From IMG/VR virus record IMGVR_UViG_2695420746_000012: a DNA stretch of 4,543 nt; one strand, written 5' to 3'. The position numbers and the translations under genes were made by a program. Positions 69 through 4,543 of this stretch are shown here, piece by piece. Every line of letters begins with the position of its first letter. The first letter of the stretch is position 1. This DNA is from a virus (lineage: Duplodnaviria; Heunggongvirae; Uroviricota; Caudoviricetes). The notes below the pieces were generated by a model. The model was given only the letters and a program-made list of their open reading frames with translations. It was not told the origin of the DNA and ran no database searches.

Positions 69-1964
69 ATGAGCAAAGTAAAAATCGGTGAATTAATAAA
101 CTCACTTGTTAGCGATGTTGAGTCAATAGATAACTCTGACCGTCCTCAAGGGGAAAAAACAAAAAAAATAAAGGCTGTTGCATTAAAATTTAAAAATGCA
201 TTATTTAATGACAAGCGAAAGTTTAGGGGGAAAGGATTAGAAAAAAGAATTACAGCCAACACATTCAATGCCTATATGAGCAGGGCCAGAAAACGGTTTG
301 ATGATAAACTTCATCATAGCTTTGAAAAAAATATACATCGCCTATCTGAAAAGTATCCTTTATATAATGAGGAGCTATTGTCATGGCTTTCTCTACCTGC
401 TGCCGATATTCGCCAAAGAATGTCAGCTTTACAGACAAAATTAAAATTAATTCTCCCTTTATCAGAAGATTTATCTAATATAAGAATTGGTGATAACAAA
501 AGTCATAATAAGTTATTAAAATTATCAAATAAATATAAAGAGTGGCAATTCGCCATTTCTGATTTAACTAGCGATAACTGGAAAGATAAGCGCGATTATT
601 TATATAAATTACTACAGCAAGGATCTGCCTTACTTGAGGAGTTGAATCAGCTAAAAGTTAACCATGAGATTCTCTATCATCTTCAACTAAGCCCTGCCGA
701 ACGAGCATCTATCCAGCAACGATGGGCGGACGTTCTGCACAATAAGAAACGTAACGTGGTGGTCATTGATTACCCTAAATATATGCAAGCTATTTACGAT
801 ATTATAAATAGCCCTGCTACATTAAATAATCTAAACACTCGTTCAGGTATGGCTCCTTTGGCATTTGCACTTGCTGCATTGTCAGGAAGACGAATGATTG
901 AGATTATGTATCAAGGTACATTTACTGTTTCTGGTAAGTATACCGTTGATTTTTTAGGCCAAGCTAAAAAAAGAACTTCTGATGATATAACCAGAAAAAT
1001 ATATACATTATGCGAAGCAAAAACATTTGTTTATTTAATAAATGTACTTCGCTCATGCCCAGCAGCATCTGATTTTGATGATGTCGTTAAAGGTTATGGA
1101 GATAACGACACACGCTCTGAAAACGGACGTATTAATGCCATATTAGCAAAGGCTTTTAACCCGTGGGTTAAATCATTTTTCAAAGATGACCGCCGTGTTT
1201 ATAAAGATAGTCGTGCTATTTATGCCCGTATTGCGTATGAAATGTTTTTCCGCGTAGATCCTCGTTGGAAAAACGTAGATGAGGATGTTTTCTTTATGGA
1301 AATTTTAGGCCATGACGATGAAAACACTCAATTACACTATAAGCAATTCAAGCTGGCCAACTTCTCAAAGACATGGAGGCCAAATACTGGAAACGAAAAT
1401 ACCAGGCTGGAAGCATTGCAGCAGCTTGATGACAAAATGCCTGGATTCGCCAGAGGAGATGCCGGGGTTCGTCTGCATAACACAGTTAAGCAGCTGGTAG
1501 AGCAGGACCCCTCTATAAAAATCACGAACAGCACTCTAAGAGCATTCAAATTTAGCCCAACAATGATTAGTCGATACCTGGAATTTGCTGCTGATGCTCT
1601 GGGGCAATTTGTTGGCGAAAATGGACAATGGCAGCTGAAAATAGATACTCCAGAAATCGTTATGCCTGACGAAGAAGAGCTGGTAGCAATACCTGAACAG
1701 ACGGATGAATTATCAGAGGATGACGATCTGGATGACGACGAAATTGAGATAGAGGAAGAGGAAGAGGAAGAGAGCGTAGAAGAACAGCAACCGCCCGCGC
1801 CTTCTTCACCTGTATCTAAGCCGGTATTTAAGCCTGTGAGAAATATTGGTGATGGCTCATACGTTGTTGAGTTTCATTATAATGGCCAGAATTATGCTTG
1901 GTCCGGCAGTGCAAACAGCCCTATGTCAGCAATGCAGTTAGCATGGCTGACATATTTCGGATAA
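69..1964 (+). CDS. telN: Protelomerase (telomere resolvase) TelN, N15 family
   Basis: 631-aa ORF with Shine-Dalgarno AGGAGAGGA at 57-65 before the ATG at 69. From memory it matches phage N15 TelN along its whole length, including MSKVKIGELI at the N-terminus, SRAIYARIAYEMFFRVDPRW, and the C-terminal YAWSG motif. Tyr424 (LHYKQF), Arg275, Lys300 and His415 sit at positions I recall as TelN active-site residues. An acidic Glu/Asp-rich linker precedes the C-terminal domain, as in TelN/TelK. Confidence 0.95.
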   Translation: MSKVKIGELINSLVSDVESIDNSDRPQGEKTKKIKAVALKFKNALFNDKRKFRGKGLEKRITANTFNAYMSRARKRFDDKLHHSFEKNIHRLSEKYPLYNEELLSWLSLPAADIRQRMSALQTKLKLILPLSEDLSNIRIGDNKSHNKLLKLSNKYKEWQFAISDLTSDNWKDKRDYLYKLLQQGSALLEELNQLKVNHEILYHLQLSPAERASIQQRWADVLHNKKRNVVVIDYPKYMQAIYDIINSPATLNNLNTRSGMAPLAFALAALSGRRMIEIMYQGTFTVSGKYTVDFLGQAKKRTSDDITRKIYTLCEAKTFVYLINVLRSCPAASDFDDVVKGYGDNDTRSENGRINAILAKAFNPWVKSFFKDDRRVYKDSRAIYARIAYEMFFRVDPRWKNVDEDVFFMEILGHDDENTQLHYKQFKLANFSKTWRPNTGNENTRLEALQQLDDKMPGFARGDAGVRLHNTVKQLVEQDPSIKITNSTLRAFKFSPTMISRYLEFAADALGQFVGENGQWQLKIDTPEIVMPDEEELVAIPEQTDELSEDDDLDDDEIEIEEEEEEESVEEQQPPAPSSPVSKPVFKPVRNIGDGSYVVEFHYNGQNYAWSGSANSPMSAMQLAWLTYFG

Positions 1965-1975
1965 AGCATACGGTA

Positions 1976-2008
1976 AAGGCACCGAATTATCGGTGCCTTG
2001 TTGTGTTG
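1976..2008. terminator. Intrinsic terminator hairpin between convergent telN and the antirepressor remnant
   Basis: Perfect 10-bp inverted repeat AAGGCACCGA (1976-1985) / TCGGTGCCTT (1990-1999) with loop ATTA, followed on the + strand by the T-rich GTTGTGTTG (2000-2008). It starts 12 bp after the telN stop; on the - strand it is followed by the weaker TTTACCGTATGCTTTAT. Confidence 0.6.
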
Positions 2009-2009
2009 C

Positions 2010-2174
2010 CTACCTCGCCTGCCCCTTTTCGTCCTCATCAAACTTTCTGATGGCCGTAGAATCAATACCCGACGCCATACACACATCAGATGCAACAAAC
2101 CACGGTTCGCCGTTAATCATCACTACACGAACCTGATGCTCTTCCGGAAAGGAAAAGACTGCTAACGCGCTCAT
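2010..2174 (-). pseudogene. Truncated phage antirepressor, BRO-N/Ant N-terminal domain fragment (54 aa)
   Basis: My own translation of the - strand (below the ORF track's length cutoff): MSALAVFSFPEEHQVRVVMINGEPWFVASDVCMASGIDSTAIRKFDEDEKGQAR. It carries the BRO-N hallmark (FxF...R-hydrophobic-I-[DN]-GEPWFVA-DV...DDEKG) and has a strong Shine-Dalgarno AAGGAGG (2180-2186, - strand) 5 nt before the ATG at 2174. It stops at 2010-2012, right against the telN terminator hairpin, whereas full antirepressors are roughly 200-300 aa. Confidence 0.6.
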
Positions 2175-2404
2175 TCAGCCTCCTTATCGTGCAGCAATTG
2201 CGACGAGAGCGATGCTGAATACCCCTGTGCTTCGTGTGTTAGCTCACACGCAATTTGAAGGAGTTTCCCTGCTTCTGAGAGATAAATCGACGCCTCACAA
2301 CTGGAGATTGTCCGATGGGCTGATGATACGAGCGCATAGACCTGAGCCAGACGTTCATCCAACGATTCCAGCAGGCCAACAGTGTTCATTTTTACCTGAT
2401 TCAT
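2171..2404 (-). CDS. Hypothetical 77-aa protein, translationally coupled upstream of the antirepressor fragment (Icd-like by position only)
   Basis: ORF with Shine-Dalgarno GAGGTGG about 6 nt before the ATG at 2404. Its TGA stop overlaps the antirepressor ATG (ATGA at 2171-2174). No sequence family recognised; the placement matches icd in P1 immI / N15 immA. Confidence 0.5.
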   Translation of the reverse strand: MNQVKMNTVGLLESLDERLAQVYALVSSAHRTISSCEASIYLSEAGKLLQIACELTHEAQGYSASLSSQLLHDKEAE

Positions 2405-2565
2405 GCAGCCACCTCGCGCACCGGAATACGGGCAGACAATACCAGGACAAACCGGCTGGCGAACTGGCGACGAGCTTCCCGTTCAGATGACGCGATAGTG
2501 GAAAGATGATGGATGTGTGACTTTTTGTCTGTGCGAACGACTGCCGCAAATTTGAATTTGAACAT
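2401..2565 (-). CDS. Small leader ORF (54 aa from ATG 2565), ORFx-like, coupled to the next gene
   Basis: The ORF track starts this frame at a GTG (2613) inside an RNA hairpin; the first ATG is at 2565 with a weak AAGAG Shine-Dalgarno. Its TGA stop overlaps the ATG of the 77-aa ORF (ATGA at 2401-2404). Protein from the ATG: MFKFKFAAVVRTDKKSHIHHLSTIASSEREARRQFASRFVLVLSARIPVREVAA. Whether it is translated is uncertain. Confidence 0.3.
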   Translation of the reverse strand: MFKFKFAAVVRTDKKSHIHHLSTIASSEREARRQFASRFVLVLSARIPVREVAA

Positions 2566-2589
2566 GGTATGCACTCTTGTTTGGAAGAA

Positions 2590-2700
2590 CAGTGCTACCA
2601 CCAGAGTTCTCACGCTCTAAGGGGGTGGTAGCCCAGACGGGGGTGAGAATACCGGCCCAAACGATACCGGCCAGCCTTTCGGCTGCCCCGCCTGAGCCAC
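2590..2700 (-). ncRNA. Candidate structured regulatory RNA / leader (c4/CI/CA-like immunity RNA region); boundaries approximate
   Basis: In - strand sense: a 5-bp hairpin with GAAA tetraloop (CAGCC-GAAA-GGCTG, + coordinates 2672-2685); a 9-bp stem GCTACCACC/GGTGGTAGC (2594-2602 / 2624-2632) enclosing a 4-bp hairpin with loop CGUGAGAA; and a single-stranded UUCUCAC (2643-2649) complementary to that loop. It sits directly upstream of the ORFx-like RBS. Confidence 0.3.
2606..2615 (-). repeat. 10-nt motif GCGTGAGAAC (- sense), copy 2, in a hairpin loop (stem AGAG/CTCT, 2603-2618)
   Basis: Exact 10-mer also present at 2780-2789. Here it lies in the loop of a 4-bp hairpin nested within the 9-bp stem 2594-2632. 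Confidence 0.5.
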
Positions 2701-2730
2701 CATAATTCGGATATGCGCAGGCTTATATAC

Positions 2731-2757
2731 ACACAAAAAAACACGCTGGCGCGTGTT
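2731..2757 (-). terminator. Intrinsic terminator within the leader of the antirepressor operon
   Basis: - strand: 7-bp stem (+ coordinates 2740-2746 / 2751-2757, AACACGC/GCGTGTT), loop of 4 nt, followed by UUUUUGUGU (+ strand A-run 2733-2739). It lies between the two GCGTGAGAAC hairpins. Confidence 0.45.
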
Positions 2758-2776
2758 GTGCGTCGCTTGGGATATT

Positions 2777-2792
2777 CGGGTTCTCACGCCCG
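2777..2792 (-). repeat. 10-nt motif GCGTGAGAAC (- sense), copy 1, in a hairpin loop (stem CGGG/CCCG)
   Basis: Exact 10-mer at 2780-2789, flanked by the 4-bp inverted repeat CGGG (2777-2780) / CCCG (2789-2792). Same loop as copy 2 but a different stem sequence, i.e. compensatory pairing. Confidence 0.5.
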
Positions 2793-2812
2793 GCTGCGGG
2801 ATTTACCGCAGC
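2793..2812. promoter_or_regulatory. Operator-like palindrome GCTGCGG-N6-CCGCAGC
   Basis: 7-bp perfect inverted repeat separated by 6 bp (GATTTA), immediately downstream (- sense) of the candidate promoter. Could be a repressor operator or the 5' hairpin of the leader RNA. Confidence 0.3.
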
Positions 2813-2818
2813 GGAGTA

Positions 2819-2848
2819 ACTTTACCGTCAAAACGACGCACACGTCAA
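2819..2848 (-). promoter_or_regulatory. Candidate sigma70 promoter for the leader / antirepressor operon
   Basis: - strand -35 TTGACG (+ coordinates 2843-2848), 18-bp spacer, -10 TAAAGT (2819-2824). A second TTGACG at 2826-2831 has no good -10. Weak match, inferred mainly from position. Confidence 0.2.
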
Positions 2849-2868
2849 TAATTTGCAAAGACATTTTA

Positions 2869-2900
2869 CCCCGTGACCAGTCACGGGGACAGGTGTTTTT
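2869..2900. terminator. GC-rich hairpin with flanking A/T runs; probable terminator separating the four-gene operon from the antirepressor module
   Basis: Inverted repeat CCCCGTGA(C) / (G)TCACGGGG (2869-2888). On the + strand it is followed by ACAGGTGTTTTTAT; on the - strand it is preceded by an A-run and followed by TAAAATGTCTTTG. It lies 62 nt downstream of the - strand operon stop (2950), so it plausibly ends that operon, but the U-tract is better in + orientation. Confidence 0.4.
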
Positions 2901-2949
2901 ATAGTTTGCTTGAACGAGTGATCAGAAGTTGATCGTTAATCAAAGGCCA

Positions 2950-3237
2950 TTACGGATTAAGAGAGTGGAAATACCTAACTAACTTACCGGCATCATCACA
3001 TTTTTCTTTATCTTCTTCCTTAACATAGCCGCGACAGAAGGCTGAATAAAATTTCGCATTTTCAGAAGCAAAAGCAGCCGTCGAAAGGAGCAGTTCTTTG
3101 CATGATTCTTTTGATGCAGCATCGGGATTATTTTTACATGCAAGCTCCGCTGATGAGTTAATAACAGAAATGCTATCTTCCTGGGCATAAACCGCAGCAG
3201 AAAAGGCAAAACATAAAACCAAAATAAAACTCTTCAC
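2950..3237 (-). CDS. Small secreted protein (95 aa, predicted signal peptide, 4 Cys in mature part), unknown function
   Basis: The ORF track begins this frame at a GTG (3261) with no Shine-Dalgarno. A GTG at 3237 is preceded by a strong AGGAG (3243-3247) with a 5-nt spacer, giving MKSFILVLCFAFSAAVYA|QEDS..., a typical Sec signal peptide. The mature part is Lys/Glu-rich with four cysteines. Last gene of the operon. Confidence 0.55.
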   Translation of the reverse strand: MKSFILVLCFAFSAAVYAQEDSISVINSSAELACKNNPDAASKESCKELLLSTAAFASENAKFYSAFCRGYVKEEDKEKCDDAGKLVRYFHSLNP

Positions 3238-3257
3238 TTTATCTCCTGTAACAGTTA

Positions 3258-3659
3258 TCACAACTCAATCAACTTTTTAGCATCAGCCATACGCTTCAAC
3301 CAGTAATCAACAATCGGTTGCTCATCCACAGAATGTTTACCTGGTATAACTCGCCAGCTGTCTGCCGAAAGGCTACCGTATCTATGCGGGAAAAGGCATT
3401 TCTTTAGCTCCTGCCATGTGCTAGGAAAACCGTCTGCCAAAGTGCCAATTAACAGAAAAGGGACAAAAATCAGGGCTACAAACCATCGGGCAAGAAAGTG
3501 CTCAACAATAACCTCTTCACCGTTATAGTAATACGCATACGTATCCCATATACGAATTTTCCTTACCCTAAAAATGGCCTTATGCTGAGAACGACTTAGC
3601 TTGATGCGAATGTATCCCTTATCCAAGAGGGATTGGTGTTTGTATGATTGAACAGCCAT
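3258..3659 (-). CDS. Hypothetical membrane protein (133 aa from ATG 3659; one central TM helix)
   Basis: The track starts this frame at a GTG (3671) overlapping the upstream gene; the first ATG (3659) is 2 nt after the upstream stop and is preceded by GTGGGG. It has a basic N-terminal region (IRIKLSRSQHKAIFRVRKIRIW) and a hydrophobic segment WFVALIFVPFLLIGTLADGF. No family recognised. Confidence 0.5.
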   Translation of the reverse strand: MAVQSYKHQSLLDKGYIRIKLSRSQHKAIFRVRKIRIWDTYAYYYNGEEVIVEHFLARWFVALIFVPFLLIGTLADGFPSTWQELKKCLFPHRYGSLSADSWRVIPGKHSVDEQPIVDYWLKRMADAKKLIEL

Positions 3660-4220: not shown

Positions 4221-4261
4221 TAGACTGGCCCCCTGAATCTCCAGACAACCAGTATCACTTA
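4221..4261 (+). repeat. IS2 left terminal inverted repeat (IRL), approximate extent
   Basis: Terminal approximately 41 bp of IS2 beginning TAGACTGGCCCCC; the right-hand copy lies outside the window. Confidence 0.7.
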
Positions 4262-4311
4262 AATAAGTGATAGTCTTAATACTAGTTTTTAGACTAGTCA
4301 TTGGAGTACAG

Positions 4312-4543
4312 ATGATTGATGTCTTAGGGCCGGAGAAACGCAGACGGCGTACCACACAGGAAAAGATCGCAATTGTTCAGCAGAGCTTTGAACCGGGGAT
4401 GACGGTCTCCCTCGTTGCCCGGCAACATGGTGTAGCAGCCAGCCAGTTATTTCTCTGGCGTAAGCAATACCAGGAAGGAAGTCTTACTGCTGTGGCCGCC
4501 GGAGAACAGGTTGTTCCTGCCTCTGAACTTGCTGCCGCCATGA
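4312..4543 (+). CDS. insC: IS2 OrfA (transposase regulatory protein InsC), 5' part only
   Basis: ATG at 4312; translation [77 protein letters not shown]... is the IS2 OrfA N-terminus with its helix-turn-helix. The ORF runs off the window end with no stop, which is why it is absent from the ORF track. Confidence 0.9.

Follow-up and report, generated by a model that had tools for sequence, protein, structure and literature searches.

A probable N15-type immA operon with ATGA-linked genes and a truncated antB in a telomere phage-plasmid of Escherichia coli

The window analysed here is a 4,543-nucleotide stretch of viral DNA (IMG/VR record IMGVR_UViG_2695420746_000012), the minus strand of which contains three short overlapping open reading frames (ORFs) encoding 54 aa (2401-2565), 77 aa (2171-2404) and 54 aa (2010-2174). 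We asked what this chain of genes is, and whether the way in which its members overlap reflects control of one gene through translation of another. An earlier note had read the chain as a mirror of the phage P1 orfX-icd-ant layout and as an analogue of N15 immA. We concluded that the chain is likely the immA operon, for secondary immunity or anti-immunity, of a telomere phage-plasmid of E. coli related to N15, and that its expression is probably governed by a C4-type antisense RNA and by coupling between the genes. The immA architecture is already known rather than new, and it opens no new question; it has reportedly been described since the N15 immA work of Ravin et al. in 1999.

Location and gene content of the operon

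Direct reading of the sequence confirmed that the three ORFs are chained by ATGA. The plus strand reads TCAT at 2401-2404 and again at 2171-2174; that is, each is an ATGA on the minus strand, in which the TGA stop of one ORF overlaps the ATG start of the next. The translated features and their downstream boundary are as follows.

2401..2565, minus strand: icd (54 aa), Icd-like inhibitor of cell division, the ORF translated first in the operon (assigned by NF033153 and identity to N15 icd)
2401..2404, minus strand: ATGA junction 1, icd stop and antA start, with a Shine-Dalgarno (SD) sequence GAGGUGG 5-11 nt upstream
2171..2404, minus strand: antA, a 77-aa homologue of N15 AntA (gp31), predicted two-helix hairpin (assigned by BLASTP, phrog and AF2)
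2171..2174, minus strand: ATGA junction 2, antA stop and antB' start, with SD AAGGAGG
2010..2174, minus strand: antB', the N-terminal 50 codons of AntB (Bro-N), 4 foreign codons (GQAR) and a stop
2023..2025, no strand: deletion junction with GGG(G) microhomology (from blastn break-points)
1976..1999, no strand: hairpin AAGGCACCGAATTATCGGTGCCTT between the convergent telN and antB', at the position of a 'putative bidirectional' terminator in phiKO2

The locus lies between telN, whose product contains all four protelomerase domains (TelK domains), and repA, and it is syntenic with N15, phiKO2, KpLi5, YDC107_1, PhiR46_1 and E. coli plasmids of ~46 kb. The proposed analogy with N15 immA was borne out: a homologue of that operon is found at this very site. 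The immA region of N15 and phiKO2 is an operon of AntA, Icd and AntB (PMC4488713, PMC10612081), and the phiKO2 record notes list icd, antA and antB in the same order as here. One of these papers terms AntA a 'repressor' (PMC4488713), which is loose wording. The hairpin at 1976..1999 is probably a bidirectional terminator that closes the operon.

Assignment of icd and antA

The first ORF had been called OrfX-like in the earlier note; we assigned it to Icd instead. Its product, read from an ATG, matched the profile NF033153 (phage_ICD_like) at 67 bits (E 1e-18, cut-off 25) and was 94% identical to N15 icd over 54 aa (tblastn). The record for phiKO2 describes Gp29 as 'similar to N15 icd', and RefSeq names the icd homologue 'Icd-like'. 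The Icd of P1 matched the same profile at 52.6 bits; BLASTP returned no alignment between P1 Icd and the 54-aa ORF, and the kinship of the two proteins is visible solely through NF033153. An in-frame GTG at 2613 would lengthen the ORF to 70 aa. This start was rejected because the codon is the GUG of C4 target a2 (see below) and the upstream extension is not conserved. It is also disfavoured by the profile match, which begins at residue 2 of the product initiated at ATG-2565, and by the annotations of phiKO2 and RefSeq, both of which give icd a length of 54 aa.

The 77-aa ORF, previously placed in the Icd position, proved to be a homologue of AntA. BLASTP aligned nothing between it and P1 Icd; the same program found 66% identity to N15 gp31/AntA (E 2e-30). 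The phiKO2 record calls Gp28 'similar to antirepressor N15 AntA', and the 77-aa protein matched phrog_6301 (125 bits) and phrog_10889, 'anti-repressor' (68 bits), with no match to any NCBIfam or Pfam model, NF033153 and Bro-N included. Its AF2 model (pLDDT 81.7) predicts two helices, 3-32 and 36-76, and a two-helix hairpin of this modelled kind is not diagnostic. The annotation can thus be corrected: Icd is encoded by the upstream ORF, and what RefSeq lists as a 77-aa 'hypothetical protein' is the AntA antirepressor.

The AntA family is very narrow. An exhaustive HMMER search of 1.84 billion proteins yielded just 8 representative clusters, so that a deep alignment is not buildable. A search for homologous proteins recovered near-identical proteins only, viral contigs contained related loci at identities of at least 96% only, and genome contigs contained no AntA-related loci. 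Nothing significant emerged from a PDB sequence search or from Foldseek against viral models. Comparisons by hhalign were negative for P4 epsilon (probability 0.1%) and for the 75-aa class of P4-like satellites, and the PY54 gene named antA has no detectable homology to the 77-aa AntA.

RNA elements upstream of icd

The minus strand is laid out in the order promoter, isrK-like leader with targets a1 and b1 and a terminator, C4 RNA, a2, b2, icd, antA and antB'. The elements that precede or overlap icd are as follows.

2819..2848, minus strand: promoter-like TTGACG-N18-TAAAGT, candidate operon promoter (Pa equivalent)
2736..2812, minus strand: isrK-like leader RNA (RF01394) ending in an intrinsic terminator (hairpin 2740-2757 and U run)
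2781-2787, minus strand: upstream C4 target a1, GUGAGAA, within the isrK-like leader
2763-2771, minus strand: upstream C4 target b1, CCCAAGCGA, within the isrK-like leader
2621..2707, minus strand: C4-family antisense RNA (RF01695), homologue of N15 CA RNA and P4 CI RNA
2656-2666, minus strand: C4 b' loop, UAUCGUUUGGG, recognition element
2643-2649, minus strand: C4 a', UUCUCAC, recognition element
2607..2613, minus strand: target a2, GUGAGAA, complementary to C4 a', in a hairpin loop
2579..2585, minus strand: target b2, UCCAAAC, pairing partner of the b' loop of C4, ending 12 nt short of the icd AUG
2453..2584, minus strand: C-rich, G-poor stretch over the 5' two-thirds of icd (C/G up to 2.2), candidate Rho-utilisation region

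The promoter-like site was the sole sigma-70-like match in 1900-3000. It sits just upstream of the start of the isrK-model match at 2812, and both of its hexamers were conserved in 11/11 aligned leaders. The leader matched Rfam model RF01394 (isrK) over model positions 1-77 at 67 bits (gathering score 50), and it scored 43.3 bits against RF03163 (c4-a1b1), under the gathering score of 46.7. Its terminator was found independently of the isrK model and has counterparts in N15 and phiKO2, where putative terminators are annotated. Because this terminator lies between a1/b1 and the C4 RNA, expression of C4 and of the ORFs needs either read-through or an unrecognised promoter. The C4 region matched RF01695 over its full length (75.2 bits, gathering score 45, E 5e-14) and was 83% identical in DNA sequence to the cI region of P4. 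An isrK-like RNA and a C4 RNA were present upstream in all 20 of the 20 loci scanned. A RefSeq call of an 'ash family protein' (2617-2787) sits atop these RNA genes.

Target a2 is displayed in the loop of a conserved hairpin whose arms are GCUACCACC (2624-2632, which also forms the 3' side of the basal stem of C4) and GGUGGUAGC (2594-2602). This hairpin is present in the minimum free energy fold of the leader (z = -5.1), and its arms covary in phiKO2. The a'/a2 pairing was intact in 100% of cells, with covariation at 4/7 pairs and an observed score reached by 0/500 shuffles; the a'/a1 pairing held in 88% of cells, also with 4 covarying pairs. The b' loop pairs with both b1 and b2 in every lineage, and in the window the b1/b' duplex was predicted at -13.6 kcal/mol and the b2/b' duplex at -8.3 kcal/mol (RNAduplex). 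Across lineages b2 lies 7-12 nt before the icd AUG. In the specificity type of the window it adjoins the icd SD, AAGAG (2574-2578), without covering it, whereas in other types it covers a GGAG SD at 7-8 nt before the AUG.

The C4 elements and their targets co-vary into 8 specificity types. Mean a2+b2 pairing was -18.9 kcal/mol for cognate combinations versus -10.2 kcal/mol for non-cognate ones, and the cognate combination was the best in every row. The a' and b' of the window likewise matched their own a1/b1 and a2/b2 best in their rows (-17.5 and -22.8 kcal/mol). Because the C4 elements co-vary with targets both upstream of C4 and before the icd start, these data support P1-like control. The suggestion of a C4-type antisense RNA acting over a linked anti-immunity operon thus gained support from the 75-bit RF01695 match and from covariation in a'/a2 and b'/b2. 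RNA specificity elements are exchanged as compensating sets, a pattern that helps to predict which E. coli and Klebsiella phage-plasmids are hetero-immune.

Conservation of the ATGA junctions and proposed coupling

A lone ATGA overlap proves nothing, since four-base overlaps are the commonest overlap type in bacterial operons; the real evidence is conservation. The earlier note had named conservation of the junctions in homologous loci as a test, and we found both junctions, together with their SDs, to be unchanged in 18/18 N15-like loci even as neighbouring codons varied (the set named for this count comprises N15, phiKO2, KpLi5, YDC107_1, PhiR46_1 and 12 IMG/VR contigs). Junction 2 was invariant in these loci despite differing C-terminal residues of AntA, and the junctions were retained even in relatives in which AntA is just 66% identical. 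The icd/ant1 overlap of P1 is also ATGA. Among distant Icd-like loci (43-52% identity), the Icd stop overlapped the next start in 30/31, by 4 nt in 21, 8 nt in 7 and 11 nt in 2, and the overlap was preceded by a GGAGGTG-like SD (occasionally GGGGGTG). The 31st locus, L024, is a degraded N15-like copy whose match is limited to Icd residues 1-26. The slot downstream of Icd is filled by three unrelated proteins across loci, and the overlap is kept nonetheless. In PY54 the RNAs, icd and the junction (ATGA with its SD) are kept, yet just a 9-codon relic lies downstream of icd.

Two further features of icd bear on coupling. The SD of antA, which like that of antB' sits within the preceding gene, has a predicted pairing partner within icd itself, CGCCAGUUCGC (-28.5 kcal/mol, z = -2.55), and the consensus fold of this masking hairpin showed almost no covariation. 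In a sliding 78-nt window, a measure of composition only, C/G reached 1.6 or more nowhere in the transcript (2830-2000) except in the stretch over icd. Because the antA start lies in the icd stop, its SD is predicted to be paired and the C-rich stretch is confined to icd, synthesis of AntA should need ribosomes that translate icd.

We propose the following mechanism. A C4-type RNA would be produced from the leader of the same transcript, and its a' element and b' loop would pair with a2 and b2 at the icd ribosome-binding site, as the covariation suggests. By analogy with P1, this pairing would block translation of icd. Dependence of antA on icd could then arise from reinitiation or from unmasking of the antA SD, combined with protection from Rho, and antB' would follow icd by coupling or polarity. 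Upon escape from C4, Icd would halt division and AntA would inactivate the primary repressor (CB), judging from annotation and literature for N15 and phiKO2. Our account of the N15 mechanism draws on secondary sources and database notes.

The alternative that best survives is that the ATGA overlaps reflect gene packing: each gene would initiate independently, control would lie wholly in transcription, with the C4/CA RNA promoting premature termination within the leader or soon after the operon begins, as described for P4 immunity, and no coupling would exist. Both internal starts have strong SDs of their own (GAGGUGG and AAGGAGG), so that the downstream genes could initiate by themselves; overlaps of this length are common, as noted; the leader retains a conserved intrinsic terminator; the hairpin that masks the antA SD lacks covariation; and the C4 RNA is nearest to P4 CI, with identical a' and a2. 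We nevertheless consider this explanation unlikely. Packing does not readily account for an overlap kept in 18/18 N15-like and 30/31 distant loci despite three unrelated downstream proteins and a variation of 4-11 nt, nor for the ATGA and SD that PY54 keeps before a mere relic. Moreover, b2 targets the icd ribosome-binding site and not a terminator, the P1 record has icd required for expression of ant, and coupling has been demonstrated at the Gifsy-1 isrK locus (PMC4825925). Dependence of antA on translation of icd remains the preferred reading.

Truncation of antB

The third ORF is a stub of antB. It was 58% identical to residues 1-52 of N15 gp30 (264 aa) and matched Pfam Bro-N (PF02498) at 26.2 bits (cut-off 25.6) over profile positions 1-41 of 96 only. 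It had previously been taken for the antirepressor; the N15 gp30 match and the phiKO2 record, which describes Gp27 as 'auxiliary anti-repressor AntB', identify it as the auxiliary antirepressor and not the main one. Relative to YDC107_1, ~736 bp are absent, from about codon 51 of antB to its end together with ~110 bp downstream. The full-length AntB of an N15-type immA operon (~260 aa, with a Bro-N N-terminus) is thus missing, and because residues 1-50 alone remain, the operon is a truncated allele of the N15-type immA family. With half a Bro-N domain, antB' is probably non-functional.

The identical deletion junction was found in 13 complete E. coli genomes (plasmid prophages), and 4 genomes retain a long antB. 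In IMG/VR locus L015, antB is interrupted by a nonsense codon. The deletion and this nonsense codon, independent of each other, both leave an AntB of ~54-55 residues. Either a short coupled AntB peptide or the loss of full-length AntB could be selected in E. coli plasmid prophages.

The truncation raises the alternative that the plasmid prophage is defective and its whole operon a decaying relic without function, and that the overlaps reflect recent common ancestry. Besides the deletion of antB, the stub of the window carries three private non-synonymous changes, IS2 is inserted in the 3' end of repA at 4222, and in the closest RefSeq relative telN is frameshifted and ISKpn26 has inserted. Against this, icd and antA are intact, the C4 a' and b' of the window still match their own targets at the energies given above, the deposited phage genome PhiR46_1 has the same stub allele, and the junctions are kept in relatives with only 66% identity in AntA. 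We regard decay of the entire operon as improbable.

Comparison with related immunity systems

The immA operon of N15 (CA RNA, icd gene 32, antA gene 31, antB gene 30) and the phiKO2 genes for Gp29-Gp28-Gp27 have the same position and gene order as the operon of the window. N15 immA also shares with it both ATGA junctions, a C4-family RNA and an isrK-like terminated leader. Identity to N15 falls along the operon, from 94% in Icd to 66% in AntA and 58% in the AntB N-terminus, and in the window AntB is cut to 50 native residues by the ~736-bp deletion. The C4 elements differ as well: a' is UUCUCAC in the window and UUGAGAA in N15, and the b' loops are not the same. Because these recognition elements differ, the two phages are expected to be hetero-immune at immA.

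P1 immI (c4, icd, ant1/ant2) resembles the window in several respects. Its C4 RNA is processed out of the leader of the operon and has two sets of targets, a1/b1 upstream and a2/b2 ahead of the ribosome-binding site of icd; the first ORF is Icd-like and overlaps its neighbour by ATGA, and an antirepressor is encoded downstream. In the P1 record, C4 target b2 stands 10 nt ahead of the ATG of icd; the record notes 'repression of icd ant translation', describes icd as 'apparently required for expression of ant', and annotates no separate orfX. No orfX lies upstream of icd in the window either, where b2 directly precedes icd. Given the P1 annotation, P1 is a two-ORF chain (icd-ant1) and the window a three-ORF chain (icd-antA-antB'). 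The P1 'orfx' is presumably the frame later named icd; a full-text literature search for P1 with 'orfX' found nothing usable. The mapping onto P1 as an OrfX-like leader ORF, a 77-aa Icd and then the antirepressor draws on the size order (a small ORF, one of ~75 aa and a Bro-N protein, as with the 73-aa Icd and then Ant of P1) and on the ATGA at both junctions, and it is almost certainly wrong, being already refuted at the sequence level by the Icd-like model, which matches the 54-aa and not the 77-aa ORF (67 bits), by the AntA homology of the 77-aa ORF and its failure to align with P1 Icd in BLASTP, and by a P1 RefSeq record with no orfX between C4 and icd and b2 directly before icd. Of the proposed P1 mirror, the linked ORFs and the C4-type control stood, and the gene labels were shifted by one. 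The window also differs from P1 in that the gene coupled to icd encodes the 77-aa AntA, apparently unrelated to and far shorter than the 347-aa Ant1 (as judged by length and by the absence of Pfam or NCBIfam matches), that its Bro-N protein is third and truncated, that similarity in Icd is undetectable by BLASTP and shared at the profile level only, and that its leader has an intrinsic terminator and an isrK-like fold before C4.

The satellite phage P4 (CI RNA, kil/Icd-like ORF, epsilon) has a C4-family RNA 83% identical in DNA, with a' and a2 identical to those of the window, an isrK-like leader, and an Icd-like ORF (50% identical) whose stop overlaps the start of a small derepressor. There the overlap spans 8 nt (GTGCGTAA) and leads into epsilon (PF25738; helper derepression), which has no AntA similarity, and P4 immunity acts on the replication operon of the satellite. 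N15-like phages, P4 and P4-like satellites thus have in common a module of C4-family RNA, Icd-like ORF and overlapping small derepressor.

At the Gifsy-1 isrK locus of Salmonella, AUGA coupling of orf45 to the antirepressor gene anrP has been proven experimentally (PMC4825925). As described, that locus likewise has an isrK-family RNA with a leaky intrinsic terminator, a leader with alternative structures, and a small ORF whose stop overlaps the antirepressor start through AUGA (PMC4825925). It differs in that orf45 is conserved in nucleotides and not in amino acids, whereas the small ORF of the window encodes the conserved protein Icd, and in that the short IsrK RNA activates translation in trans (PMC4825925). 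We suggest, speculatively, that the isrK-like RNA of the window, which has its own terminator and whose a1/b1 co-vary with C4 in 8 types, may accumulate separately and titrate C4 in trans as an anti-antisense sponge. If so, immA would work as a switch of three RNAs, setting the threshold of Icd and AntA expression, in parallel to trans-activation by IsrK in Gifsy-1.

The three-ORF chain is icd-antA-antB'

This locus is an already known system, the N15-type immA operon, in a common E. coli allele whose antB is truncated. Its novelty is low; what our analysis adds is a deletion map, eight mutually compensating types of RNA specificity, and the finding that the stop/start overlap following Icd is general. 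The earlier note had read the chain as orfX-icd-ant, after P1 immI. That regulatory logic held up, while the labels proved to be off by one gene, and by similarity the three frames are to be read as follows.

2401..2565, minus strand: icd, 54 aa from its ATG (in-frame GTG at 2613)
2171..2404, minus strand: antA, 77 aa
2010..2174, minus strand: antB', 54 aa

The frame taken to be ORFx-like is Icd: it matched NCBIfam NF033153, ‘host cell division inhibitor Icd-like protein’ (67 bits, cut-off 25), and was 94% identical to the matching 54 residues of N15 gene 32. Its 70-aa GTG-start form showed 85% identity to the 96-aa gp32 across 62 residues (BLASTP). Pairwise BLASTP gave no alignment between the 54-aa ORF and P1 Icd, which scored 52.6 bits against the NF033153 model. 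The 77-aa ORF, previously placed at the Icd position, had no similarity to P1 Icd and no match in Pfam or NCBIfam; it was 66% identical to N15 gp31, which is AntA (E 2e-30), and matched phrog_6301 and phrog_10889 ‘anti-repressor’. The 54-aa stub aligned to residues 1-52 of N15 gp30 (264 aa) and covered only positions 1-41 of the 96 in the Bro-N model. The names were settled by the phiKO2 RefSeq annotation, which labels the 54-aa Gp29 as ‘similar to inhibitor of cell division N15 icd’, the 76-aa Gp28 as ‘similar to antirepressor N15 AntA’, and Gp27 as ‘similar to auxiliary anti-repressor N15 AntB’. RefSeq entries on near-identical plasmids annotate the Icd-like and Bro-N ORFs and leave AntA ‘hypothetical’.

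The annotated P1 genome has no orfX; its order is c4, a2, b2, icd, ant1, with ant1 overlapping icd by ATGA. The ‘orfx’ of the 1992 P1 work we take to be the frame later named icd. By analogy with N15, phiKO2 and P1 annotation and literature, Icd would be a division inhibitor and AntA an antirepressor; two papers on N15 and phiKO2 assign AntA, Icd and AntB to a single operon, immA, and leave AntB function open (PMC4488713, PMC10612081). The AlphaFold model of AntA is a two-helix hairpin (pLDDT 81.7). Structure and sequence searches with AntA returned no informative relatives, and its family is tiny (8 representatives among 1.84 billion proteins).

Conservation of the ATGA junctions

The ORF coordinates and ATGA overlaps proposed earlier were exact, with TCAT on the plus strand at 2401-2404 and 2171-2174. 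Both internal starts have a Shine-Dalgarno (SD) sequence within the preceding gene, GAGGUGG and AAGGAGG. Since one ATGA overlap by itself is commonplace, what matters is whether the junctions are conserved. Both junctions and their SDs were invariant in 18 loci (the window, N15, YDC107_1, PhiR46_1, KpLi5, phiKO2 and 12 IMG/VR contigs), and the neighboring codons varied; AntA, for example, ends in ...KEAE, ...GEAQ or ...REAK.

The window and its relatives

The window is the start of the right arm of an N15-like telomere phage-plasmid. Features outside the operon were:

69..1964, plus strand: protelomerase ORF (4/4 protelomerase domains)
~2868-2887: terminator-like hairpin CCCCGTGACTGGTCACGGGG, after the 103-aa ORF and just upstream of the immA promoter
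2950-3261, minus strand: 103-aa ORF with a hydrophobic N-terminus, matching phrog_26765
4222-4543 (junction 4221/4222): IS2 copy starting at its terminal inverted repeat TAGACTGGCCCCCTGAA..., with TnpA from 4312 (NF006928 ‘IS2 repressor TnpA’, 170 bits)

Up to 4221 the window shared 95-99% identity with E. coli plasmid prophages of ~46 kb (best match NZ_LR883007.1, 99.2%) and 96% identity with phage PhiR46_1. Positions 1965-2950 aligned to N15, phiKO2 and their Klebsiella and Enterobacter relatives and, over the small-RNA part, also to the P4 cI region. Homology to PhiR46_1 and every E. coli plasmid relative ends at 4221, ~45 nt ahead of the repA stop codon; thus, the insertion has taken the place of the final ~14 codons of this replication gene.

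In NZ_LR883007.1, recorded as circular, telN is frameshifted and an inserted ISKpn26 separates the Spackle-like gene from the next ORF. Together with the IS2 copy in the window, this suggests that this lineage of phage-plasmids accumulates IS elements. The PhiR46_1 counterpart of the 103-aa ORF is annotated ‘Spackle exclusion protein’. The YDC107_1 record (CP025712.1) carries icd-antA twice (33274-33704 and 39782-40173), the second copy with an Icd identical to the window’s; a duplication or an artefact of assembly could account for this.

Leader RNAs and C4 pairing specificity

Upstream of icd we located these elements:

2848-2819: promoter-like TTGACG-N18-TAAAGT
2773-2825, minus strand: c4-a1b1 element, sub-threshold (Rfam)
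2736-2812, minus strand: isrK RNA (Rfam, 67 bits)
2757-2740: hairpin, with a U run, of the intrinsic terminator at the 3' end of the isrK-like RNA
2621-2707, minus strand: full-length C4 antisense RNA (Rfam, 75 bits)
2656-2666: C4 b' loop UAUCGUUUGGG, pairing with b1 (2763-2771) and b2 (2579-2585)
2643-2649: C4 a', single-stranded, UUCUCAC in the window
2607-2613: a2 target, GUGAGAA

In the N15 and phiKO2 records, too, the 3' end of the isrK-like RNA is marked as a putative terminator. Across an alignment of 11 distinct leaders, a' and a2 were complementary in every one; four of the seven pairs covary, with three pair types, a score reached by none of 500 shuffles. Element a' is also complementary to a1 (2781-2787). 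Site b2 lies 7-12 nt ahead of the icd AUG, covering the GGAG SD in most types and abutting AAGAG in the window’s. The 11 leaders comprised eight specificity types, and mean a2+b2 pairing was −18.9 kcal/mol for cognate versus −10.2 kcal/mol for non-cognate combinations, with the cognate best in each row. Because of this three-way covariation, there is strong sequence evidence that a C4-type RNA recognizes the region where icd translation starts, in agreement with the P1 annotation.

The window’s a'/b' combination was unique among the 11 N15-like leaders. Its a' equals that of P4 and of L015 (IMG/VR UViG_2700989363_000008), and its b' closely resembles the YDC107_1 loop; the combination looks mosaic, with an a' of the L015 type and a b' of the YDC107_1 type. 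The window’s a' and a2 (GUGAGAAC) are identical to those of the P4 CI RNA (L022 1075-1125), and the b' loops differ.

In the minimum-energy fold of the whole leader (z = −5.1), a1/b1 pair with a'/b' in cis, and the 3' strand of the C4 basal stem pairs with a conserved downstream GGUGGUAGC, which places a2 in a loop; the arms of this hairpin covary in phiKO2. The predicted fold is similar to the alternative structures that experiments revealed for isrK of Gifsy-1. A 56-aa ORF (2617-2787, minus strand) lies over the C4 RNA, the terminator and a1/b1; its RefSeq counterpart is an ‘ash family protein’ (2736-2906 in NZ_LR883007.1). KpLi5 has a second ‘Icd-like’ ORF (44 aa, no NF033153 match) at this place. 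Both look like RNA genes called as proteins, a carry-over from the old P4 cI/ash ORF.

Proposed control of icd and antA

Given the gene identities, conserved overlaps and SDs, and covarying RNA-RNA complementarity that the analysis showed, C4 bound at a2/b2 would keep 30S subunits off icd, and with icd free of ribosomes AntA would not be made. Such dependence is suggested by two features within icd. The antA SD is predicted to pair with CGCCAGUUCGC (−28.5 kcal/mol, z = −2.55), a pairing with almost no covariation in the consensus fold, and the transcript’s only C-rich, G-poor stretch (2584-2453, C/G up to 2.2) is compatible with Rho-dependent polarity. Precedents are the P1 record, where icd is ‘apparently required for expression of ant’, and Gifsy-1, where AUGA coupling of orf45 to the antirepressor gene anrP was demonstrated via start- and stop-codon mutations (PMC4825925).

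Truncation of antB

Relative to YDC107_1, ~736 bp are absent at antB. The deletion runs from after codon ~50 (...DEDEK) to ~110 bp 3' of antB, with GGG(G) microhomology at the junction (2023-2025); the frame then runs through four foreign codons (GQAR) to a stop. The identical junction occurred in 13 complete E. coli genomes, plasmid-borne in every case, and in PhiR46_1 and 8/12 IMG/VR loci; four E. coli genomes kept the long antB. Three private non-synonymous changes in the window’s stub, although few, are consistent with relaxed constraint. In L015 (2731-3510) a full-length antB carries a nonsense codon at position 56 (GVT*SYTP; GVTLSYTP in relatives), by its sequence a second, independent AntB truncation of nearly the same predicted length as the 54-aa deletion stub.

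The Icd stop/start overlap in wider loci

We compared 31 further Icd-like loci from genome contigs (mostly 43-52% identity), mostly P4-like satellites of many enterobacterial genera. The Icd stop overlapped the next start in 30 of them, by 4 nt (21 loci), 8 nt (7) or 11 nt (2), with a GGAGGTG-like (occasionally GGGGGTG) SD. In the remaining locus, L024, the match was limited to Icd residues 1-26, and it looks like a degraded N15-like copy. The isrK-like and C4 RNAs were upstream in all 20 loci scanned. Because it is kept with these RNAs across the wider loci, the overlap is a conserved design feature of the RNA-controlled module rather than something peculiar to the window. Three unrelated proteins occupy the downstream slot:

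AntA, 76-77 aa
P4 epsilon (Pfam ‘Derepression’ family PF25738), 93-99 aa
an unannotated class, 75-77 aa

In P4, the Icd-like ORF overlaps the epsilon GTG start by 8 nt. PY54 retains the entire leader, icd, SD and ATGA, and the ORF that follows has only nine codons (MIHDVRQQI; L021 1640-1690), apparently the remnant of a coupled gene that was lost. The PY54 gene named antA gave no tblastn match to N15-type AntA. The 75-77-aa class (MRHTTITARDLECLEHMRNVGQLV...RCNQQWL...) is conserved and fills the slot that would be translationally coupled to Icd. It had no Pfam or NCBIfam match and resembled neither AntA nor P4 epsilon; it may represent a derepressor or antirepressor family not yet described. 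It starts at the Icd stop in L025, L026 and L036-L053, P4-like satellites of Citrobacter, Enterobacter, Kluyvera, Phytobacter, Edwardsiella and other hosts.
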